A stretch of 64,000 nucleotides of DNA. Origin: an uncultured Endomicrobiia bacterium (GTDB lineage Bacteria > Elusimicrobiota > Endomicrobiia > DTEH01). The stretch spans positions 15,799 to 79,798 of the forward strand of contig CALFVX010000004.1 of NCBI GenBank assembly GCA_937928765.1. The letters run 5' to 3'. The notes below the pieces were generated by a model. It was not told the DNA's origin, searched no databases, and saw only the letters and a program-made list of their open reading frames with translations. Both the position numbers and the translations under genes were made by a program. How positions within the stretch are numbered: the stretch's first letter is position 1; each line of letters opens with the position of its first letter. This document shows, one piece after another, positions 3,608 through 56,044 of the stretch.

Positions 3608-4254
3608 GATTATTAAAAAATTATATAAACCGATATAAATCCGAGATTAAGAAAGGCAAAGTTATAGTAATTTCTGCACCGTCAGGTGCTGGAAAGACAA
3701 CCGTATGCAAAGAGTTATTAAGAAGAAATAAAAATATTACTTTTTCGGTTTCTTATACTACTAGAGAAAAAAGAAGCCACGAAATTAATGGTAAAGATTA
3801 TTTCTTTGTTTCAGAGAAAAAATTTTTTAAAATGGTAAGACAAAATAAATTTATAGAATGGGCAAAAGTGCATAATCATTTCTATGGAACGCCGAAAGAC
3901 TTTGTTATTAAAACAATAAATTCTTCTAAAGATATTTTGCTTGATATTGATGTCCAGGGCGGGAAAAATATAAAAAAAATATTTCCTTATGGAATTTTTG
4001 TTTTTATTTTACCTCCGTCAGTAGAAGCTTTAAAACAAAGAATAATTTCTCGTGGAGAAGACGAAATAGATGAAATAAATACGCGATTAAAAAATGTTGA
4101 TAAAGAATTGAAATATATTAGTTATTATGATTATATTGTAATTAATGATAAGCTTAAAGAAACAGTAAAGATAATAGAAAATATAATTTCAGCAAATAAG
4201 TATAAAATAAAAATAGACAACAGATTGTCAAACACTTACAAGTATAGTTTGTAA
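3604..4254 (+). CDS. gmk: Guanylate kinase
   Basis: P-loop [10 protein letters not shown] and [17 protein letters not shown] motifs. ATGA overlap with the upstream gene. Confidence 0.9.
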
Positions 4255-4256
4255 TG

Positions 4257-4319
4257 AGTGATAGCAGGTAGTTTATGGTGAAGAGTAAAAAAGTGAGAAA
4301 GTGAAAAAAAGAAAAAGAG
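4257..4319 (+). repeat. Dispersed purine-rich AGTGARAA-periodic element, copy a (B-then-A module order), starting 3 nt after the gmk stop
   Basis: Sequence gagtgatagcaggtagtttatggtgaagagtaaaaaagtgagaaagtgaaaaaaag. Stops at 4279, 4286, 4294 and 4302 cover all three frames. Confidence 0.6.
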
Positions 4320-4324
4320 TTTAT

Positions 4325-20928: not shown

Positions 20929-21001
20929 TGTCCCCGGCGAGAGTCGAACTCGCAACCTACGGATTAAGAGTCCGCTGCTCTACCAGTTGAGCTACGGGGA
21001 C
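20929..21001 (-). tRNA. tRNA-Lys (anticodon CUU), no encoded CCA
   Basis: Hand-folded cloverleaf: acceptor GTCCCCG/CGGGGAC, D arm GCTC-AACTGGTA-GAGC, anticodon arm GCGGA-CTCTTAA-TCCGT, T arm GCGAG-TTCGACT-CTCGC, discriminator A. Confidence 0.9.
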
Positions 21002-33906: not shown

Positions 33907-34158
33907 GAACAGAAAGAAGGTTTTGAAGATTTTTTAGAATGCTTGAATAAGTATAGAGTCAAATACTGTATAGTTGGCGGGTTTGCAGTTTCGTATCACA
34001 GTAAACCACGGTATACAGACGATATGGATATTTTGGTTTATCCAGATTTAGATAACAGTAGAAAGACAAAATTAGCAATGGCTGAATTTGGCGTAGATGT
34101 TTCAAAAGTTGAAGATGAATATTTTGCTGTTAGTGGGAATTTTTATCAGATTGAATAA
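33907..34158 (+). pseudogene. Truncated copy of the minimal nucleotidyltransferase-fold gene (no proper start, premature end)
   Basis: EDFLECLNKYRVKYCIVGGFAVSYHSKPRYTDDMDILV aligns with the 34365 ORF (KDLLKTFNKYRVKYIIVGAYAVIYYTEPRYTKDIDIWI). It ends at ..FYQIE where the intact copy continues. Confidence 0.55.
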
Positions 34159-34210
34159 CTACTCTTGATGTGGTAGATTTAAAAACCGTATAGAAGAGTT
34201 AAACAAAGTA

Positions 34211-34417
34211 ATGAAGAAAAGACGAGTTATAATGGAAAGGATTGTGAAAATTTCAGAGTCAAACGATGATTGGAACATAAAGTTCTGGCAAAAACTTGGG
34301 GTAACACGCAGATTTTCAGTAGCATGGGAGATGTTACGAGATTATGAAAAAATAAGAGGGAAAAATGCAATTAAGTTCAGACTACAAAGATCTGTTGAAA
34401 ACATTCAACAAATATAG
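34211..34417 (+). CDS. Small hypothetical protein, putative partner of the downstream nucleotidyltransferase
   Basis: 68-aa ORF overlapping the NTase gene by 53 nt. FWQK...RLQRSVENIQ tail resembles small proteins I recall upstream of such NTases (from memory, unverified). Confidence 0.45.
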   Translation: MKKRRVIMERIVKISESNDDWNIKFWQKLGVTRRFSVAWEMLRDYEKIRGKNAIKFRLQRSVENIQQI

Positions 34418-34826
34418 GGTGAAATACATAATTGTAGGGGCATATGCTGTGATTTACTATACGGAGCCACGATATACAAAAGATATAGATATTTGGATAA
34501 AACCTGATAAGGAAAATGCAATTAGGGTTTATAATGCGTTAAAAGAATTTGGTGCTCCATTGAGAAATATTTCCATAGATGATTTTACTAATAAAAATTT
34601 GATTTATCAGATCGGTGTGGAACCTGTAAGAGTTGATATAATGATGGATTTTGGAGGTTTAAATTTCAATTCGGCATGGAAACGAAGAAAAAGGATAAAA
34701 TACGGTGATGTACTTACTAACCTTTTAAACATAAAAGACCTGATAAAAGTAAAAAGTAAGTTAAAAAGACCAAACGATATTTTGGATGTTGAAAAATTGA
34801 AAATGGTACTTAAATTGAAGAAGTGA
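34365..34826 (+). CDS. Minimal nucleotidyltransferase-fold protein (MNT/AbiEii-like superfamily, TA-like module)
   Basis: hG[GA]x(9-13)DhDh pattern (VGAYAVIYYTEPRYTKDIDIWI). Its stop TGA overlaps the ATG of the giant gene. Confidence 0.65.
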   Translation: MQLSSDYKDLLKTFNKYRVKYIIVGAYAVIYYTEPRYTKDIDIWIKPDKENAIRVYNALKEFGAPLRNISIDDFTNKNLIYQIGVEPVRVDIMMDFGGLNFNSAWKRRKRIKYGDVLTNLLNIKDLIKVKSKLKRPNDILDVEKLKMVLKLKK

Positions 34827-37800
34827 TGAAAACTAAATTGGAAAAAATTTTTTCAGGTGTAGTTTTGTGTTTAGCAGTTTTATCGCAGTATACCTTTGCG
34901 CAAACAGGTCAGGCAATTAATAGCTGGGTTCAACTTACAACAGCGCCTGGCAATGCACAAGGGGCTGGAGTTTGTGTTGTTTATGTTCAAAAAGAAGGTA
35001 AAGATAAAATATATAGTATGCGCGGAGGAAGTAATATTTTTCAAATTTATGATATTGAAACAGATGTTTGGATTTCTACTACTAATTTACCATATAATGC
35101 AAGTACCGGCGCTTCAATGACCTGGGATGGTGAAAATTTTATATATATGCTTTTAGGTGGAACAACGTTTTATCAATACGATATTTCTGCATCAACATTT
35201 ACAAGATTAGCAGACCCGCCAGGTTCTATAGCAGGCGGTGGTGCAATAGTTTATGTAAGCACTTCAGTAGATGCTAAATGGTGTTATGCATTTCAAGGTG
35301 GAACAAATGTTTTTTGGAGATATAATATATTGACTAATGAGTGGAGTTCTGTGGCGCCTCCCGGAGCGGCAACAGGGGCTGGAAGTAATCTTTTATGGAC
35401 AGGAGATAATTATATTTATGGTTCAAGATTCGGTAGTACTTCTAATGCATTTTTCAAAAGGTACAATATAGATACTGATACGTGGGAATCTCTTCAATCA
35501 TTACCTACGGGCAACTGGGGAGCAGGCGGTTCTTTATGTTGGGATGGTGTTATAACTTCATCAAATATTTACGCGATTCAAGGTGGTGGTAGTACAAATT
35601 TTTTAAAATATAACATTTCTCAAAATCAGTGGGTTACAGTTCAGTCATTACCAATTGCTGTGGGGACAAACACAGGTAACCGTCTCGCAAGGGTTGGTGA
35701 TTATATTTACGGAAGGTTAGGCTCAACTAATGCTACGGATTCTTTCTGGCGTTACCGATGGCGAGATGTTGACCCGCCGGGGAAAATCACAAGTTTTGTT
35801 GCAGAAACCGGCACAAATGGTGGCGAGATAAATTTAAGTTGGGTTTCTCCAGGAAATGATGGATACATAGGTAACCTTCCTTCAGGGAGCACTTTTTATA
35901 TCCAATATTCTTCAATGACTGAAAATGTTGTCTTTTCAACTTCATCACCACAGAATGTTTATGAAATTTATATCCCAACAGGACCTGTTCTACAAGGAAC
36001 AACTGTTTATTATACTGTTGGTGGTCTTCAAGAAAATGTAACTTATTATTTTAGAATCTGGACAAAAGACAATTCTGGTAATTGGTCAGAAATTTCAAAT
36101 GGTGCAACTGCCTGGGCTCAAGTTACACCGCTTGCTTCTGCGCCAAATGATCTTGAGATAACGAATGTAACCACAAATATAATAACCCTATCTTGGTCTC
36201 TTTCTGGTGCAGCGACTTACTGGGTAGAACACTCAACCATTTCTTCTCCTTATAACTGGATATGGCGTTCAAGTGTTCCAGCGCCAGGTAATATGTATCA
36301 AGATGTTGATTTAGAATGGGGAACTACTTACTGGTATAGATTAATAGCTGTAAACTCTGTGGGAAAACCAAATTATGATTCTTCAAGTAATATAGTAAGT
36401 TCAACTACTTATCCTGGAGTACCTACAGATTTTAATATACAAGCAAGAACATCTACTTCCATAACCTGGACATGGACACCTCCTAATGGTTTTGCTGATG
36501 GATATAAAATATATCAGGCCACATCTCCCACGACACTTGTTGCTACAGTACCCTTTGGAACAAACACTTACGAAGAAACAGGTCTCTCCACCAACACCGC
36601 CTATGGCAGATATGTCCGTTCATATAACATTGTCGGTGAATCGTTGGATTCAAACCATGCAACATTTTATACACTTGCAGTTCCACCGGAAAATCTGCAG
36701 ATAACAGAGGTTTATTCAAGTTCAGTGACACTGACCTGGCAAGCAGGTGGTAATCCCCAAGGTACAAGGTTTGGTCTTGCCCGTGCAGAAGATGAGAATT
36801 TTACAGTTAATCATACGACCTTTGTTTCTCTTTCTGATAATCTCACAGAACTTACAACAACAGCAACAGGTCTTGGTGAGGATACTACTTATTATTTCCG
36901 TGTTTGGGCATATAACGGCGACGGAATTGAATCTGGGTATAGTAACATAGTCAGTACAAAAACATTACCAGGTCCGCCTGCTACACCACTTGGACTTTAT
37001 GGAATTGCATTATCTACAGTTTCAATAAAATGGGAGTGGAATATTACAAAAAATGCTACTTATTATCAGGTTTATGATGCGGACAACAATTCACTATTAG
37101 CAAATCTTGAAGGCAACGGGACAACTACTTGGATTGAAGTTGGCCTTTCTTCAAACACGCAGTATACAAGATACATAAAAGCAGGAAATGAATACGGCCT
37201 TTCAGCTCCGTCTCTAAATGTCTCAAGATACACACTTGCTTACCCACCGACGGTATTAAATGCAGTAGCGGTAAGTTCATCAACAATAGATTTATCCTGG
37301 AATTATAGTGGTGCAACTAAATATCAGATATGGTGTTCAACTGTTGATTCACAATCACAGGAATATTGGTTAAATATCACCACGGTTGCCTCACCGACGT
37401 TGACTTATCAACATCAGAATTTATTATCAGGAGTGACTTATTATTACAGAATTTATCCTGTCAATGGTGATGATATTGTAAATACAGAATTTGACTTTCC
37501 GAGTGCATCAACAAGAACATATCCCTCACCAGTTGGTTCTTTTTACGGTATTGCAATATCCACAACATCAATAAACTGGCAATGGGAACCTGCCTTAGGT
37601 GCTGACGGCTACAAAATTTATAGTGCCACAGACAACTCTGTAGTTGCAGAACTTGTCTCTGCTAATACTTTTTATGTAGAAAGCGGATTTGCTCCAAATC
37701 AGCAGTGTGGCAGATATATCCGCGCGTTTAATACAACAGGGCTGGGTGAACTTTCAGCAAAAACAACTGTTTATACACTTGCAAACCCGCCTACAAACTT

Positions 37801-40084
37801 AACTGTTATCGGTGTAAATTACAATAGTGTTTTATTATCCTGGTCTGCAAACAACAATCATTCTGCAACAAGATATGAGGTGTCACAATCTACTGATAAC
37901 TTTGTTACAAATTTTTCAACTCCAATAAAGTTGACGGATAATTATACAAACACAACAGCAGATATTGATGGTTTAGCTGTTGATACTGAATATTTCTTCA
38001 GAGTAAGAGCATTTAATGGCGATGATGTTTCTACCGAATTTAGTGATATATTTAGTACAAAAACACTTTCTTATCAAATAGGAGTAATTATTGATGAAAG
38101 TTTTGATGGTGAAACATTTCCGCCTTCTGGTTGGGTGGCACAAGGTACAACAAGAGTTACAACTCGTTATGTTAGCCCTCCATATAGTGTTGGCAATTTT
38201 ACTGCATCAAATTATTTGTTTACTCCTTTCCTAGAGAATCCTCTAACTATGACATTTCAGTTGTATGTTACCGGTTCAGCATCTGTATTTACTGTTCAGA
38301 TAGGTACTTCACAATTTATTTCTGGTACTTGGTTAACTATTTTTTCTACAGGTGGAATAGCAAATACTTGGCAAACACAAACAATTGATTTATCAGGATA
38401 TCAAAATGTTTATGTAAGAATGAATCGTACATCTGGTCAAAATTCTTTTAATCTTGACGATGTCAAAATCACAGGATATCTAATACCTGACACTATAATA
38501 CCTTCATCAATCTCCAACCTAACTGCTTTATCTACTAATATTGAAGGGGCAGTTCAACTCAACTGGACATCGCCTGGGGATGATGGCGAAGATGGCACTT
38601 TGAATAATGCCGCCTATAGAATCAAATATTCAACCATTAACTTTACAAGTTTTTCAAAGGATGATAGTTACAACATAGAATTTTCAACAACAGGCGTTCC
38701 ACCAAAAACAGAAGTTAGTTATATTGTTAGAGGGCTTGCTCCAGGAACTTCATACTATTTTGGAATTATTGCAAGAGATGATTCTAACAACTGGTCAACT
38801 TGGACAAAAGATGAAGGCCTGGGTATAAACACTTCAAATTATGCCTGGACAGTTGATTTACCACCTTTTCCACCATCTCAGATTTCAGCGGTGTCTTCAA
38901 ACAGAAGTATATCACTTTCTTGGCAACATCCTTCAGCTGATCCTGGAGATATAGACAAGTACTGGGTATATCAGGCGACATTTAGTTTTAGTTCGTCAAC
39001 TGAAGAAAATGTTGTTCATATTGCAACAGTCAGTTATCCTTTGGCACATACAACAATTACCGGACTGACAAACGGCACAGAATATTTCTATAGGATAAGA
39101 ACAGTAGATAAAGGTGATACTGGTGATGGTTATTATGGTGAAGTTCTTGTAGGCTCTTTAAGTGACCCGCCTGTTTCAGCAGTTCCTAAAATTCGCCCGC
39201 CAGGCAATTTAGTTGCAACCCATTATGGTAGTTATGTTTCACTTTCATGGGAAGATTCGCCTGATTATAAAGCAGACAATTTTGCTGGATATAATATTTA
39301 TCGTTCTACTGACAATTCATCTTCTTCATTTTTTCACTTTCTTACTTTTTCACTTTCTAACTCTGCTACTGATTATTCTGTTGAAAAAACTAAAACTTAT
39401 TATTATTTAGTTCGCACTTCAGATACTTTTGGTTCTTTAAGTGACCCCTCAAATATTGCTGAAGCAATTCCTGATTTAATCCCACCTAAGATACAGATTT
39501 TAAGGCAGCTTACTTCGCGTGATATTGCAAAAGATGTTGCTTTTGTAGAATTCAAAATTCTTGATGACAGGTTTAACGAAAATGATAAACAAGGTAAGAT
39601 AACATCTGTAATAGGTAAGTATAGAAATATCGCTGCACAAAATAATTTTGAAAAAGAGATAAAGATTACAGGTGATGGGTTATATTCTGCAGAATTTATT
39701 GGCAAAGGTGAACTTGAGTTCACAATTTTTGTTATTGGCAAACAAGGAGTTGAGTATTATCTTGAAGCAAAAGATGAAGTTAACATAACAAGATGGCCTA
39801 AAGAAAACGAGTGGTGGCGTGTTTTACCACCAGAAGATAAACCTGAACAAAAGTTTATCACGACAAAAAATCCTGAGATTGTTTTTGGTAAAGAGACACA
39901 AGAGGTTGTAATACGAGATTATAACGGAAACGAAATATGGAGACAAAAATCTGATGGAGACAAATTAATCATATGGCATGCCGAAGATAGTAAAGGTAAA
40001 AAAATAGAATCTGGTGCGTATATTTATCAGATAAAAACAAAAGATGGGAAACGAAAATATGGAGTAGTTATTGTGGTGAAGTGA
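34826..40084 (+). CDS. Giant exported surface protein: 6-blade Kelch-like propeller, ~10 FN3-like modules, a jelly-roll (choice-of-anchor-J/MAM-like) insert and a FlgD-Ig/T9SS-like C-terminal domain
   Basis: Signal peptide. Six W-containing Kelch-like units (aa ~30-315). Repeated FN3 signatures (LSW/LTW...Y.V/Y.I...YYFR). ESFDGETFPPSGW domain. Tail ..IWHAEDSKGKKIESGAYIYQIKT..GVVIVVK. Confidence 0.85.
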   Translation: MKTKLEKIFSGVVLCLAVLSQYTFAQTGQAINSWVQLTTAPGNAQGAGVCVVYVQKEGKDKIYSMRGGSNIFQIYDIETDVWISTTNLPYNASTGASMTWDGENFIYMLLGGTTFYQYDISASTFTRLADPPGSIAGGGAIVYVSTSVDAKWCYAFQGGTNVFWRYNILTNEWSSVAPPGAATGAGSNLLWTGDNYIYGSRFGSTSNAFFKRYNIDTDTWESLQSLPTGNWGAGGSLCWDGVITSSNIYAIQGGGSTNFLKYNISQNQWVTVQSLPIAVGTNTGNRLARVGDYIYGRLGSTNATDSFWRYRWRDVDPPGKITSFVAETGTNGGEINLSWVSPGNDGYIGNLPSGSTFYIQYSSMTENVVFSTSSPQNVYEIYIPTGPVLQGTTVYYTVGGLQENVTYYFRIWTKDNSGNWSEISNGATAWAQVTPLASAPNDLEITNVTTNIITLSWSLSGAATYWVEHSTISSPYNWIWRSSVPAPGNMYQDVDLEWGTTYWYRLIAVNSVGKPNYDSSSNIVSSTTYPGVPTDFNIQARTSTSITWTWTPPNGFADGYKIYQATSPTTLVATVPFGTNTYEETGLSTNTAYGRYVRSYNIVGESLDSNHATFYTLAVPPENLQITEVYSSSVTLTWQAGGNPQGTRFGLARAEDENFTVNHTTFVSLSDNLTELTTTATGLGEDTTYYFRVWAYNGDGIESGYSNIVSTKTLPGPPATPLGLYGIALSTVSIKWEWNITKNATYYQVYDADNNSLLANLEGNGTTTWIEVGLSSNTQYTRYIKAGNEYGLSAPSLNVSRYTLAYPPTVLNAVAVSSSTIDLSWNYSGATKYQIWCSTVDSQSQEYWLNITTVASPTLTYQHQNLLSGVTYYYRIYPVNGDDIVNTEFDFPSASTRTYPSPVGSFYGIAISTTSINWQWEPALGADGYKIYSATDNSVVAELVSANTFYVESGFAPNQQCGRYIRAFNTTGLGELSAKTTVYTLANPPTNLTVIGVNYNSVLLSWSANNNHSATRYEVSQSTDNFVTNFSTPIKLTDNYTNTTADIDGLAVDTEYFFRVRAFNGDDVSTEFSDIFSTKTLSYQIGVIIDESFDGETFPPSGWVAQGTTRVTTRYVSPPYSVGNFTASNYLFTPFLENPLTMTFQLYVTGSASVFTVQIGTSQFISGTWLTIFSTGGIANTWQTQTIDLSGYQNVYVRMNRTSGQNSFNLDDVKITGYLIPDTIIPSSISNLTALSTNIEGAVQLNWTSPGDDGEDGTLNNAAYRIKYSTINFTSFSKDDSYNIEFSTTGVPPKTEVSYIVRGLAPGTSYYFGIIARDDSNNWSTWTKDEGLGINTSNYAWTVDLPPFPPSQISAVSSNRSISLSWQHPSADPGDIDKYWVYQATFSFSSSTEENVVHIATVSYPLAHTTITGLTNGTEYFYRIRTVDKGDTGDGYYGEVLVGSLSDPPVSAVPKIRPPGNLVATHYGSYVSLSWEDSPDYKADNFAGYNIYRSTDNSSSSFFHFLTFSLSNSATDYSVEKTKTYYYLVRTSDTFGSLSDPSNIAEAIPDLIPPKIQILRQLTSRDIAKDVAFVEFKILDDRFNENDKQGKITSVIGKYRNIAAQNNFEKEIKITGDGLYSAEFIGKGELEFTIFVIGKQGVEYYLEAKDEVNITRWPKENEWWRVLPPEDKPEQKFITTKNPEIVFGKETQEVVIRDYNGNEIWRQKSDGDKLIIWHAEDSKGKKIESGAYIYQIKTKDGKRKYGVVIVVK
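35768..38047 (+). repeat. Tandem FN3-like coding repeats (eight modules; three recurring subtypes in order 1-2-3-2-1-2-3 after a first SPGNDG-type module); boundaries approximate
   Basis: Recurrent subtypes ITLSWS..YWVEHS, TWTWTPP..DGYKIYQAT and VTLTWQAGGNPQGTRF..YYFRVWAYNGDG, and their later copies. Confidence 0.6.
39329..39373 (-). repeat. Inverted copy of the purine-rich element embedded in frame in the giant ORF (encodes FFHFLTFSLSNSATD)
   Basis: ttttttcactttcttactttttcactttctaactctgctactgat. Its reverse complement reads B-like atcagtagcagagttag followed by aaagtgaaaaagtaagaaagtgaaaaaa. Confidence 0.55.
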
Positions 40085-40158
40085 GAAAATAAAAAAGTAA
40101 AATATTGAGAAAGTAAAAGAGTAAAAAAGACAGCTGATAGTTTATAGCAGGCAGGTGA
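40076..40158 (+). repeat. Purine-rich element copy c (A then B module), overlapping the giant-gene stop. Its B module is the left inverted repeat of the four-helix-bundle cassette
   Basis: gtgaagtgagaaaataaaaaagtaaaatattgagaaagtaaaagagtaaaaaagacagctgatagtttatagcaggcaggtga. Confidence 0.6.
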
Positions 40159-40183
40159 AAAAATAAAGGAAAAGGTTTTAGAT

Positions 40184-41524
40184 ATGAGTGATAAAGAATA
40201 TATTTCACCAAATAAAAAATTGTTAGTATTGCAGAAAGCGTTTGCATTATGTAAAGAAGTTTATCAGATTGTTAAAAAATTTCCAAAGAGTGAACTGTTT
40301 GGTATTACACAACAAATCAGACGAGCGGTAGTTTCTATAGTAAGCAGTATAGCTGAAGGTGCTGCAAGGACAGGTGGGAAAGAAAAAATAAAGTTTTTTA
40401 TTACAGAAAAAGGTTCTCTTACAGAGTTGGAAACACAACTGTTGTTAGCAAAAGAGTTAGAATATTACATTTATAATCAAGAAATATTTAATAAAATCCA
40501 AAAAGTATGGAAGTTATTAAATGTATTGATTCAAAGCAAAAGAAAAATTATCAAAAATTTTCTTTTGTTATTTTTAACTATCACCTACCTGCTATCACCT
40601 AACTGCTGTTTGTTATTTTCCGCATTCCAAAGCACTGACTGGTCTGTTCGTGCAGAAAGTATGGGGGGTGTTTTTACTGCCATAAGTGATGAACCATCAG
40701 GGGTTTATTATAACCCTTCAGGGACAAGATTTGTTGAAAAAAATTTTGTCCAAACAATGTATTCAAAACCGTTTTTAGGTATTGAAGATATCAATATTTA
40801 TCTTATGAACATAGCAGGAGTTTTTAAAACAAAATATATTTCTTTAGGATTTAGTTATGGAAGTTATAATGTAGAAAACAATTTGTATAAAGAAGATACA
40901 ATTATTTTTAATCTTAGCAAAAAATTGGATGAAATTTATTCTGAATTACCGGCTTTAAGTTTAGGTATAAATTTTAAATATCTTACTAAAAAATATACTT
41001 TTGATGATGAAATCTTAAATTTAGAACCAGAATTGAAAGATAAAAAATCAAGATCAGTTGTATCATTAGATTTTGGTGCAATATACAAATTTTTAGATGA
41101 TAAGATGTCTGTAGGTTTTGCAGTGAAAGATTTTAATCAACCAAATATTGCTGTTTTGGAAGAAAACAAAGATATAATACCAATGGTAGTATCTTTTGGT
41201 AGTGCATACAATTTTGGTGATATAAAAACAGGACTGTATTTTGAAGATTTTACTTTAGGCATAGAGTTAAGGTATAGAAACCAAGATTGGGGTGATGAAA
41301 ATACAAAATTTTTTTATGCATTAGCTATTGAGACATATTTAAATTTTCATACCATACCTATAAGGTTTGGAATAAACAAAAATTCTTTTAATTTAGGTTT
41401 TGGATATCAAGGGATAAAAATTTCTGAAAAACTTAACCTTGGTATAGTTTATAATTTTGGGTTACCAATAGTGTATAATGATACTTTTGGTAATCATAGA
41501 ATTTGTGTAGATGTAAAGTTTTGA
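40184..41524 (+). CDS. Uninterrupted ORF joining a four-helix-bundle protein (23S rRNA IVS-type, TIGR02436-like; ~40184-40525) to a PorV/PorP-like OM beta-barrel protein (possible own TTG start at 40526)
   Basis: N-part: FPKSELFGITQQIRRAVVSIVSSIAEGAAR...GSLTELETQLLLA. From 40526: signal-peptide-like MIQSKRKIIKNFLLLFLTITYLLSPNCCLLFSAF, then AESMGGVFTAISDEPSGVYYNPSG and terminal ..VDVKF. Confidence 0.6.
   Translation: MSDKEYISPNKKLLVLQKAFALCKEVYQIVKKFPKSELFGITQQIRRAVVSIVSSIAEGAARTGGKEKIKFFITEKGSLTELETQLLLAKELEYYIYNQEIFNKIQKVWKLLNVLIQSKRKIIKNFLLLFLTITYLLSPNCCLLFSAFQSTDWSVRAESMGGVFTAISDEPSGVYYNPSGTRFVEKNFVQTMYSKPFLGIEDINIYLMNIAGVFKTKYISLGFSYGSYNVENNLYKEDTIIFNLSKKLDEIYSELPALSLGINFKYLTKKYTFDDEILNLEPELKDKKSRSVVSLDFGAIYKFLDDKMSVGFAVKDFNQPNIAVLEENKDIIPMVVSFGSAYNFGDIKTGLYFEDFTLGIELRYRNQDWGDENTKFFYALAIETYLNFHTIPIRFGINKNSFNLGFGYQGIKISEKLNLGIVYNFGLPIVYNDTFGNHRICVDVKF
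40581..40608 (-). repeat. Right inverted repeat of the four-helix-bundle cassette (inside the ORF, encodes part of the signal-peptide-like segment)
   Basis: The reverse complement of tcacctacctgctatcacctaactgctg matches 40131-40158 (cagctgatagtttatagcaggcaggtga) at 23 of 28 positions. Confidence 0.55.
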
Positions 41525-41525
41525 T

Positions 41526-41580
41526 ATTAGCTGGTAGGTGGTAGTTAGAGAAAAATGGTTGTATTCAAAGGTGATAGAAA
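41526..41580 (+). repeat. Purine-rich element copy e (B-type module), starting 2 nt after the stop
   Basis: attagctggtaggtggtagttagagaaaaatggttgtattcaaaggtgatagaaa. Confidence 0.45.
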
Positions 41581-55889: not shown

Positions 55890-55950
55890 AAAAAATTTTG
55901 TAGTTTATAAGCACAACACTTAATTTCTAATTGATAAAAAAATAGATATT

Positions 55951-56044
55951 AGAAGTGAGAAAGTGAAAAAGTGAGAATGTTATAAAGTAAGAAACATAAT
56001 TAGTAGAGTGTATGGTGGTAGGTAGACTTAAGTAACAGGTGTTG
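55951..56044 (+). repeat. Purine-rich element copy i (best-preserved A module, then B module), upstream of pcrA
   Basis: agaagtgagaaagtgaaaaagtgagaatg...ggtggtaggtagacttaagtaacaggtgttg. TGA at 55956, 55964 and 55972 (8-nt spacing) falls in all three frames. Confidence 0.6.

Follow-up and report, generated by a model that had tools for sequence, protein, structure and literature searches.

A four-helix-bundle (4HB) protein of the type encoded in 23S rRNA intervening sequences (IVSs) and an outer-membrane beta-barrel share one uninterrupted reading frame in the DNA of an uncultured Endomicrobiia bacterium, the 4HB part being enclosed between the arms of a long inverted repeat. We consider it probable that an IVS-type 4HB cassette resides here within an mRNA and has become genetically entangled with the downstream barrel gene. 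In what follows, the window is the whole stretch of DNA analysed, 64,000 nucleotides in length, and all features lie on its forward strand. An earlier note on this DNA had left three alternatives for the products of the locus, namely RNA processing at the stem, an internal translation start, or a genuine 4HB-barrel fusion protein; the comparative data favour the last, as the fusion is conserved and a conserved internal start is missing.

The reading frame, 40184-41524, encodes 446 amino acids without any stop codon between the 4HB domain, a hydrophobic segment and the barrel, exactly as had been claimed, and both PF05635 and PF11751 match within it. The missing stop is not an assembly or sequencing artefact: an identical fusion protein is found on an independent Logan assembly, an ENA assembly encodes a 99% identical one, five further assemblies encode diverged fusions, and diverged copies are present in several MAGs. 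The upstream gene (34823-40084) encodes a 1753-aa surface protein with Kelch and fibronectin-III repeats (Pfam fn3, E 2e-60), presumably a secreted cargo, whose stop codon is directly followed by repeat arrays. The order of cargo gene, barrel gene and a gene for a phospholipase-D-like protein with a secretion tail is conserved in all related loci. The locus lies between two protein-coding genes, not within a 23S or 16S rRNA helix; Rfam recognized no known RNA family at the locus, and no rRNA in the whole window, which contains a single tRNA (20929-21001). No promoter or terminator was predicted above shuffled expectation in the interval between cargo and 4HB.

The 4HB domain spans aa 1-118 (40184-40537). 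It is matched by PF05635 (23S_rRNA_IVP) at aa 11-113, with an E-value of 1.4e-27 and 96.4 bits against a cut-off of 33.8, by the NCBIfam model TIGR02436 'four helix bundle protein' (94.5 bits, cut-off 24) and by PDB entry 2gsc (E 1e-15). A structure model also features four helices in this part, at a pLDDT below 50 because of the shallow alignment, and was not used there. The dN/dS values lie at 0.10-0.39 in the 4HB, which is thus evolving under purifying selection, and at 0.20-0.46 in the barrel. The mature barrel, of the PorV/PorP/SprF-like type, corresponds to aa 148-446 and the stop codon (40625-41524): PF11751 (PorP_SprF) covers aa 174-442 with 50.4 bits, above its cut-off of 22.3, while the NCBIfam models PorV_fam and T9SS_PorP_fam score 52.8 and 48.3 bits, below their cut-offs of 90 and 90.55. 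The predicted structure, with about 14 strands at pLDDT 70-90, is a FadL-like beta-barrel resembling PorV, and the best Foldseek matches are the PorV chains 8gl6_F (E 1.9e-8, TM 0.50/0.60) and 6h3i_F of the type 9 translocon, followed by FadL. NCBI names these fusion proteins just 'four helix bundle protein'.

The two 28-nt repeats previously proposed, 40131-40158 and the reverse complement of 40581-40608, do match at 23 of 28 positions and can be extended to an inverted repeat of 34 nt with 79% complementarity (40125-40158 and 40581-40614). Both arms are arrays of 7-nt units. The left one, with TAG or CAG recurring each 7 nt, is separated from the 4HB start codon by 25 nt; the right one consists of four CTA-initiated heptamers, CTATCAC, CTACCTG, CTATCAC and CTAACTG (TRF period 14, 2.1 copies), and is coding, its translation TITYLLSPNCC falling, as had been noticed, within the core of a signal peptide. 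When the region 40110-40630 was folded, the expected long-range stem was present in the minimum-free-energy structure (z = -3.75, none of 100 shuffles being as good). The local alignment score of the arms was 33 against a null of 19.6 +/- 3.3, with one of 200 shuffles reaching 34, and their duplex energy -44.6 kcal/mol against -27.9 +/- 4.3, not attained by any of 60 shuffles. The description as an IVS-type unit is borne out in that a PF05635 ORF occupies the loop of a long stem of heptamer-built repeats. Taken from this one locus alone, the case against chance is moderate; the repeat is convincing because the arrangement recurs in all orthologous loci with an intact 4HB and across the 4HB family. 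The further copies of the 28-nt repeat that might have been expected were not found in the window (allowing up to 3 mismatches), where only related solo arrays occur, and six-frame translations revealed no second 4HB, either in the window or in related loci.

Several other arrays surround the cassette. A purine-rich array of 8-nt units (AGTRARAA) with stops in several frames lies at 40080-40129, just after the cargo stop (40086-40129 by TRF, period 8, 5.5 copies), and similar arrays are found at 4284-4317 and 55953-55994. Its portion 40080-40117 forms a second long-range inverted repeat, 38 nt long and 76% complementary, with a pyrimidine-rich array of 8-nt units within the cargo ORF (39325-39362, TRF period 8/16, encoding FHFLTFSLSN); the equivalent cargo-internal position is occupied only in the closest relative, L002. 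A third array, oriented as the left arm, directly follows the barrel stop (41528-41554) and is complementary to 40568-40594 (27 nt, 81%); a longer counterpart follows the barrel stop of L002, and none is present in L020, L021 and L022. Arrays of the left-arm type also stand alone elsewhere between genes, and the left arm itself might thus belong to the host and not to the cassette.

The fusion and its flanking repeats recur in five other Endomicrobiia lineages, with barrels 56-79% identical. Proteins P0001-P0005 and P0007, of 439-446 aa, carry both PF05635 and PF11751, with barrels that share 56-99% identity with the one in the window. An ordinary domain fusion, which the earlier note had set against the cassette, is thus only half supported: orthologues do share the fusion, but those that share it also have the flanking repeats, and the locus is therefore not an ordinary, repeat-free fusion. 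In the same way, a cassette-type unit does sit between cargo and barrel genes, as suggested, but its landing was not recent, the arrangement being common to orthologues down to 45-56% barrel identity.

An inverted repeat stretching from the intergenic region to the signal-peptide codons is present in every locus having a 4HB or its remnant. The arm sequence varies by lineage, including CAGGTAG-type heptamers, AGTGAAAA-type octamers and, in L004, the AAGTTTAAAG type. In intact fusions and in L004 the z-scores of the duplex energies range from -3.9 to -6.4, and cross-pairings between loci form blocks by arm type; in remnant-bearing loci arm complementarity is AU-rich and the energy is no better than that of shuffled purine-rich sequence (z -0.2 to -1.9). 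RNAalifold detected only a 9-bp core common to six fusion loci, because repetitive arms align poorly, and two compensatory pairs in the remnant loci, whose sequences are too similar to one another.

In other lineages the 4HB is a separate gene, is frameshifted, is deleted in frame or is absent. A stop followed by an ATG makes 4HB and barrel separate genes in L005; the start in L004 is the ATG of the 4HB 'KML' motif; L007, L009 and L013-18 have kept the 4HB ATG, with in-frame internal deletions. These alternative states fit a barrel dependent on the 4HB start. The remnant junction is identical in L009 and L013-18, though their barrels belong to different clades, which suggests recombinational exchange of the 5' region between them. 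The cassette-free locus L023 is nested among remnant-bearing loci in a midpoint-rooted NJ tree, and rooting on its own branch is equally parsimonious, so that its lack of a cassette may as well be ancestral as a loss.

The segment joining the two domains (40538-40624) has, from the alignment of orthologues, the features of a signal peptide or signal anchor in internal position: KRKIIKN as a positive n-region, FLLLFLTITYLLSPNCCLLFSA as a hydrophobic core, modelled as a helix at 125-135, and an end at A147-F148-Q149, three residues invariant in 14 orthologues. In orthologues devoid of the 4HB (P0008 and P0017) the corresponding segment is an ordinary N-terminal signal peptide. Here the hydrophobic segment extends over about 22 residues, which is long, and an aromatic residue stands at -3 of the A|FQ cut; both features are unfavourable for signal peptidase I, so that the exact cleavage site is uncertain. 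The 4HB ATG, preceded by the Shine-Dalgarno-like AAGGAAAAGG at 40167-40176, is the sole conserved translation start of the whole ORF. There is no ATG, GTG or TTG across the 48 codons preceding the cleavage region in L020, L022 and L007, and the sole candidate in L003 and L021 is a TTG inside the hydrophobic core: with no start codon before the signal peptide in several lineages, translation of the barrel must begin at the 4HB start. The TTG at 40526-40528, which had been put forward as a possible barrel start, is present in frame, with a weak GGAAG 12 nt upstream, but occurs only in the window and L002 among the 14 loci compared; it is not a conserved internal start, and might at most serve as an independent one in this particular genome.

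These observations bear directly on the view that a cut by RNase III in the stem, an internal start, or both, would yield two products, with the 4HB made from the loop once it is cut out and the barrel starting at the TTG at 40526. Folding does predict a stable long-range stem, RNase III cleavage has a precedent in this type of element (Coxiella), and in the window and L002 the TTG stands ahead of a complete n-region and hydrophobic region. The right arm, however, lies 55 nt downstream of the TTG, within the signal-peptide codons, and a cut there would remove the barrel start together with the n-region and leave a 4HB message with no stop codon; as the barrel message would be left without a start codon, processing cannot separate two functional products, contrary to one of the alternatives in the earlier note. 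The architecture is moreover unchanged in the lineages with no start codon before the hydrophobic core (L020, L022 and L007), and in L007, L009 and L013-18 the ORF still begins at the 4HB ATG in spite of the in-frame deletions. We regard this explanation as unlikely.

The conservation of the fusion over 56-79% barrel identity, along with the purifying selection acting on the 4HB, would also be expected of an adaptive, membrane-spanning two-domain protein, in which the 4HB would be a functional cytoplasmic domain and might, for example, link a cytoplasmic partner to the barrel or to barrel assembly, the complementarity of the arms being incidental or inherited. Yet the 4HB is deleted, frameshifted or absent in at least five related lineages, while the barrel is intact in all of them and hence does not need it. 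An outer-membrane barrel tied by about 40 residues to an inner-membrane anchor would be sterically implausible, and the flanking inverted arrays, a hallmark of free-standing 4HB cassettes, are retained here. An adaptive fusion of this kind is distinctly unlikely.

The same architecture is a general trait of 4HB genes situated in operons. Flanking inverted repeats with z of at least 4 (median 7.7) were detected in 25 of 37 unrelated 4HB loci, as against none of 32 other ORFs of the window and one of 107 shifted windows from the same 4HB loci. The arms are 25-48 nt long and mostly made of 7-nt units; the left one stops 7-70 nt short of the start codon, and about 1-60 nt separate the stop codon from the right one. 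Arm sequences differ between loci, with no shared terminal sequence, and the architecture is also present in unrelated GC-rich loci, where the right arm is non-coding. Co-directional 4HB genes were found inside operons, such as one between rpsG and fusA and one in a polysaccharide operon; a further 4HB gene has been reported between cmr3 and cmr2 (PMC3936711). Ordinary cassettes of the family have a stop codon just before the right arm, which is non-coding: 19 of the 21 standalone loci checked combine a non-coding right arm with a stop of the 4HB's own. L024 is the only standalone locus whose downstream gene starts inside the cassette, and a full fusion was seen, among the loci surveyed, only in the Endomicrobiia locus. 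We tried a universal rule by which left arms would carry stops in the three frames and right arms none, and found only a tendency: in a count covering 25 loci (L003, L020, L021 and L022 were left out), stops occur in each of the three frames in 11 left arms and in no frame in 15 right arms. A full-text search of the literature retrieved papers on IVSs, diversity-generating retroelements (DGRs) and cas contexts, none of which describes inverted heptamer arrays around mRNA 4HB genes.

In seven related standalone cassettes, 84% of the cells of the outer stem are paired and 15 of 26 pairs are changed on both sides, a covariation not reached in any of 500 shuffles; slid controls were 24-44% paired. 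Selection for RNA pairing could be mimicked at the DNA level by concerted evolution of the arms, through slippage and template switching between the inverted repeats. In a further alternative, the repeats have no RNA role and are termini of a small non-autonomous mobile element, sites of recombination or inversion, or quasi-palindromes maintained by template switching. The small size of the element, about 480 bp between arm ends, with terminal inverted repeats, would suit such an origin, as would the variation of array length by whole heptamers, both between L029 and L030, which differ by exactly 11 units, and among Coxiella strains, and the remnant junction shared by L009 and L013-18. On the other hand, a miniature transposable element would not agree with arms that differ in every locus, leaving no common sequence for a transposase to recognize, nor with the lack of a second arm (up to 3 mismatches) or 4HB copy in the 64-kb window or in the relatives' flanks. 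A phase-variable invertible segment was likewise rejected: inversion of the arms would bring a TAA in frame within the signal peptide, an unworkable on/off switch, and the 4HB segment has a single orientation in all assemblies. No recombinase or transposase was found among the neighbouring genes, and the frequent G-U pairs among the covarying positions of the seven cassettes fit RNA rather than DNA pairing. A purely DNA-level origin appears very unlikely, although the cassette as such may be mobile.

Chance complementarity between purine-rich arrays and the pyrimidine-rich codons of any Leu/Phe-rich signal peptide is hardly credible: shuffled purine-rich left regions do reach -25 to -39 kcal/mol, the duplex energies of the remnant loci lack significance and arrays of the left-arm type exist at other intergenic sites, but own-locus pairs beat all shuffles in the six intact fusions and L004, the left region of the window, at -45 kcal/mol with its own partner, reaches only -17 to -31 with five signal-peptide regions taken from elsewhere in the window and with one N-terminus of cytoplasmic type, heptamer-type arms are not low-complexity sequence, and unrelated GC-rich loci with a non-coding right arm show the same architecture.

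For the cassette entangled with the barrel gene, we can propose the following course of events. In the Endomicrobiia clade, the stop of the 4HB and the barrel's own ATG have been lost, leaving one ORF that runs through the right arm into the barrel, and the T/C-rich right arm is read as a Leu/Phe/Thr/Tyr-rich sequence, serving as the hydrophobic core of the barrel signal peptide. Ribosomes initiating at the 4HB ATG would produce a 446-aa precursor; the 4HB would fold in the cytoplasm, while KRKIIKN and the 22 hydrophobic residues that follow would engage Sec, with the N-terminus inside. Cleavage by signal peptidase next to the invariant AFQ would then free the barrel for insertion into the outer membrane, and the 4HB would remain as a membrane-tethered cytoplasmic stub, or be degraded. 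The RNA stem, 30-45 bp long, would be an inherited trait of the family, formed on untranslated message and, by analogy with rRNA, cut by RNase III. As such a cut would inactivate the barrel message, the most likely role of the stem is not to separate products, and it would instead tie survival of the message to ongoing translation, or lower expression.

To our knowledge, apart from the DGR relatives (Avd), no function is known for the very large family of 4HB, or '23S rRNA intervening sequence', proteins, and of its own genetic contexts only the rRNA intervening sequence has been described. The survey, together with this locus, shows that the stem-plus-heptamer architecture surrounds 4HB genes in ordinary operons too. 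It is conceivable, though we say so tentatively, that stem-loop cassettes of a widespread, as yet undescribed class carry PF05635 4HB genes as cargo, in operon transcripts as well as in rRNA and in many phyla. If so, these cassettes would be closed by inverted arrays of locus-specific 7-8-nt units, which covary to keep pairing and grow or shrink by whole units; they would persist either by self-excision at the RNA level or by entanglement with a downstream gene, to which they donate a start codon or, at this locus, a signal peptide, so that the host could not delete the cassette without losing the entangled gene. The Avd-like 4HB protein may recognize the periodic arrays. A 4HB cassette can also become an obligatory part of a host gene: here it provides the barrel with its translation start as well as the core of its signal peptide, a case in nature of a repeat element furnishing a signal peptide. 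The locus also offers a testable model of such elements, as RNA-level 'introns without religation' or as selfish cassettes, and a warning for annotation, since 4HB genes that co-occur with cas or other operons may be there through insertion and not for a functional reason.

Comparison with known systems places the locus between several of them. The barrel resembles the PorV, PorP and SprF proteins of type 9 secretion (T9SS) in its PF11751 score, in a predicted fold whose nearest counterpart is the PorV of two SprA translocon structures, 8gl6 and 6h3i, and in adjoining genes for proteins with secretion-tail or FlgD-Ig-like C-termini; unlike them, it belongs to Endomicrobiia (Elusimicrobiota) and not to Bacteroidota, and scores under the NCBIfam cut-offs. 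We know of no other member of this group with a cytoplasmic domain preceding the signal peptide. The cytochrome b/c1 precursor FbcH of Bradyrhizobium, a polyprotein with an internal, cleaved signal peptide, likewise carries a hydrophobic signal segment in its middle part, where cleavage frees the exported downstream part; in contrast with FbcH, the upstream part here would be the protein of a selfish element rather than a functional partner, and cleavage is predicted.

Tandem 7-nt units in intergenic regions are shared with the heptanucleotide STRR repeats of cyanobacteria, which include insertions into structured RNA genes; we know of no description of STRRs as inverted pairs around a 4HB ORF. 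The DGR accessory protein Avd is of the same four-helix-bundle superfamily, but the 4HB of the window matches its models only weakly (bAvd PF22296, 29 bits; NF033474, 25 bits), below the curated cut-offs of 40 and 80 bits. A DGR was ruled out on this score and on the lack of a reverse transcriptase among the Pfam-assigned neighbours; no direct repeat of the TR/VR type is in the repeat list of the window. Much closer are the free-standing 4HB genes of operons (TIGR02436), with their co-directional insertion, inverted arrays of 7-8-nt units and similar loop size, although these mostly have their own stop and a non-coding right arm.

The 23S rRNA IVSs, such as those of Leptospira and of helix 45 in Coxiella burnetii, similarly hold a PF05635 ORF in the loop of a stem formed by terminal repeats. 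Unlike them, the element of the window lies in a protein-coding operon, between cargo and barrel genes, and its ORF has no stop and runs into the host gene, the right arm coding for the signal-peptide core; excision by RNase III would, by comparison with rRNA, be harmful here. In Coxiella, the terminal stem is 28 bp long and is cut by RNase III in mid-stem, and tandem heptamers, whose copy number varies among strains, lie upstream of the S23p ORF (PMC4990558). The present locus closely recalls this organization, with tandem heptamers near the start of the ORF, both arms being made of 7-nt units and preceded upstream by an array of 8-nt units.

The continuity of the fusion proposed in the earlier note was confirmed: a single ORF of 446 aa on the forward strand (40184-41524), lying between the arms of a 34-nt inverted repeat, contains both a four-helix-bundle (4HB) and a barrel domain. 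It starts 99 nt past the cargo gene, which encodes a Kelch/fibronectin-III surface protein of 1753 aa (34823-40084), and is followed by genes for a phospholipase-D-like protein with a secretion tail, further PorV-like barrels, ComEA-like proteins, a pilin and a prepilin peptidase. The solved structure 2gsc matches the 4HB part (E 1e-15); a PorP/SprF-type barrel was recognized by profile match at aa 174-442, modelled confidently with about 14 strands, the best structural matches being PorV chains of the type 9 translocon. Between the domains lies the segment KRKIIKN, followed by 22 hydrophobic residues and ending at A147-F148-Q149 (AFQ), invariant in 14 of 14 aligned orthologues; in orthologues lacking the 4HB, the equivalent segment is an ordinary N-terminal signal peptide. 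By its relatives, the window derives from an uncultured member of the Endomicrobiia (Elusimicrobiota). Its G+C content is about 28%, being 35-38% in the cargo gene region (34001-40000) and about 24-31%, mostly 26-29%, in the remainder.

Over 34 nt, complementarity between the repeat arms, 40125-40158 and 40581-40614, reaches 79%; the earlier count of 23 matches out of 28 positions is correct. The stem is present in the minimum-free-energy structure of the 40110-40630 RNA (z -3.75). Both arms are arrays of 7-nt units; those of the right arm, CTATCAC, CTACCTG, CTATCAC and CTAACTG, encode TITYLLSPNCC, which forms the signal-peptide core. Units of 8 nt, AGTRARAA, make up an array 5' of the left arm (40086-40129), and a third array is found, of the left-arm type, directly after the barrel stop codon (41528-41554). 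No Rfam family was found at the fusion locus.

Related solo arrays, composed of 7-/8-nt units (GATAGCAGGTAG, AGTGAGAAAGTGAAAA and GGTGGTAGGTAG), are found in three intergenic regions of the window, 4255-4320, 55945-56040 and 41528-41554, with neither a 4HB gene nor a complementary partner close by. They lie on the coding strand, each behind the stop codon of a gene, and may be what is left of cassettes, sites where cassettes land, or a separate signal of intergenic regions. A second long-range inverted repeat, limited to the window and its closest relative (L002, 1107-1138), pairs 39325-39362 with 40080-40117 (76% complementarity over 38 nt, with 717 nt separating the arms) and encloses the final 240 or so cargo codons; its first arm is a pyrimidine-rich array of 8-nt units within the cargo ORF (FHFLTFSLSN), the partner lying just past the cargo stop codon. 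Recurrent GC-rich motifs, of the GTCATCCTGAGCG..GCGAAGG and TTGTCATTGCGAGGAGCGTAAGCGATGAAG types, adjoin arrays in intergenic regions of two related loci (L002, 3455-3640; L013, about 3735-3775); they appear to form a small-repeat family of their own, of a kind seen in many phyla.

The barrel part was used as query in a protein search, and genome and metagenome contigs were scanned; together these retrieved about 20 related loci with the same gene order as the window. The fusion is intact in the window, L002, L003, L020, L021 and L022, the barrels of the relatives being 56-79% identical to that of the window. In L005, the most distant orthologue, the 4HB gene is separate, its TGA being directly followed by the barrel ATG, and the 4HB also contains an internal stop codon. 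The 4HB is frameshifted in L004/L017, where the 'KML' motif of the 4HB supplies the ATG of the barrel ORF, partly deleted in frame in L007/L011, and reduced to an in-frame remnant in L009 and L013-L018, where 15 N-terminal and 11 C-terminal residues precede the signal peptide. It is absent from L023, where the barrel ATG lies 6 nt past the cargo stop codon. The barrel clearly survives without the 4HB. Where intact, the 4HB shows dN/dS values of 0.10-0.39, against 0.20-0.46 for the barrel, indicating a selected protein, not a spacer. The deletion junction of the remnants (..QQAVN joined to LNCLLKYCQ..) is identical in L009 and L013-L018 (about 3866-4007), loci whose barrels the NJ tree assigns to different clades. 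One metagenome yielded both L009 and L018. These observations suggest that recombination has exchanged the 5' region among populations living together.

Wherever a 4HB or its remnant is present, the sequence from the cargo stop codon to the 4HB ATG is reverse-complementary to the signal-peptide core; L023 lacks anything comparable. Arm sequence varies by lineage: most fusions carry CAGGTAG-type heptamers, L022 and the remnant loci AGTGAAAA-type octamers, and L004 AAGTTTAAAG-type units; duplex energies group in blocks by arm type. For the intact fusions and L004, arms of the same locus pair better than every shuffle (z -3.9 to -6.4); the AU-rich stems of remnant loci are not significant by energy. 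RNAalifold kept only a 9-bp core (CAGGUAG : CUACCUG) in the six fusions, because the repetitive arms misalign.

Similar arrays surround 4HB genes elsewhere. Four standalone genes from other phyla (in the rpsG-fusA interval, in a polysaccharide operon, beside conjugation genes and in Sphingobacterium) are co-directional within operons, and each has tandem 7-nt units on its flanks; in the first (L028, 2461-2911, in the str operon), the CTCTAAA units of the right arm abut the fusA ATG. Addition of 35 viral-contig loci gave 37 scoreable loci, 25 of which have a flanking inverted repeat with z of at least 4 (median 7.7), several misses being accounted for by mis-set ORF starts. This threshold was reached by none of 32 other ORFs of the window and by 1 of 107 windows shifted within the survey loci, against 20 of 27 real ORFs. 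Arms are 25-48 nt long, with a unit differing at each locus; the left arm ends 7-70 nt 5' of the start codon and the right one begins about 1-60 nt past the stop. Covariation is strong in the outer stem of seven related cassettes: of its 26 pairs, 15 differ on both sides, and 84% of cells are paired, a level that no shuffle out of 500 attained, slid controls giving 24-44%. Overall, about two thirds of the PF05635 genes from unrelated bacteria and viral contigs (L028-L065) are enclosed by inverted arrays of 7-8-nt units, left arms tending to be purine-rich with stop codons and right arms pyrimidine-rich without stops. Two Sphingobacterium-type contigs (L029, 2292-2500; L030, 1856-1987; units GTAACCA/GTGACGA) share an identical 4HB protein and downstream flank, and their upstream arrays differ by 77 nt, exactly 11 heptamers. 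In one locus (L047, 30-2720) an open frame of at least about 896 codons spans, in a different frame, the whole cassette and both arms; it may be spurious, or a large gene may contain the cassette. The family-wide pattern is a more important lead than the fusion locus.

The cassette reading of the earlier note is supported: the locus is a cassette of the intervening-sequence type, carried in an mRNA and fused to its host gene. Rather than separating two products, the stem more likely makes survival of the message dependent on translation, damps expression, or is simply kept as a trait of the family. A role of the arms at the DNA level, through slippage, template switching between arms or recombination, is conceivable, but the arms have no common sequence recognisable by an enzyme, and inversion of the segment would be non-functional.

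Among the outcomes envisaged in the earlier note, a genuine fusion protein is favoured. The stem cannot separate two products, since a cut would hit signal-peptide codons and remove the only start. Nor is an internal start conserved, the TTG at 40526 being restricted to the window and L002, the sole candidate in L003 and L021 being a TTG within the hydrophobic core, and ATG, GTG and TTG being absent from the 48 codons before AFQ in L020, L022 and L007. The 4HB ATG is therefore the only conserved start; as all decay events left it in frame, the barrel appears to be made as a 4HB-signal peptide-barrel precursor. The barrel ORF depends on the 4HB start. The internal signal segment, with its positive n-region, would target the precursor to Sec with the N-terminus inside, and signal peptidase would cleave beside the invariant AFQ, releasing the barrel to the outer membrane and leaving the 4HB in the cytoplasm. 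Cleavage is likely, because about 40 residues of tether would scarcely reach across the periplasm; its exact site is uncertain, given the long core and the aromatic residue at position -3.

The 23S intervening sequence of Coxiella has a 28-bp terminal stem, cut by RNase III mid-stem, and tandem heptamers, strain-variable in number, 5' of the S23p ORF (PMC4990558). Terminal stem and tandem heptamers by the ORF are shared with the 4HB cassettes, RNase III cutting being a feature of Coxiella. 4HB genes have also been reported within cas operons, for example in the cmr3-cmr2 interval (PMC3936711); a literature search of partial coverage retrieved no account of inverted arrays around non-rRNA 4HB genes. 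Checked in 21 standalone cassettes, the right arm proved non-coding in 19; the exceptions are the Endomicrobiia locus and L024 (2478-2918), from a GC-rich genome. In L024 a downstream hexapeptide acetyltransferase gene has an ATG overlapping with the 4HB stop codon (ATGACTGA), and the right arm encodes the first 14 residues of the enzyme (MTEPSTIHHPPSTT); here, too, a cassette has captured the start of a host gene, the second such case. The pyrimidine-rich right arm yields a Leu/Phe/Thr/Tyr-rich translation, fit for a signal-peptide core. The topology of L005 is that of L024, and the other Endomicrobiia lineages went further, to full fusion.
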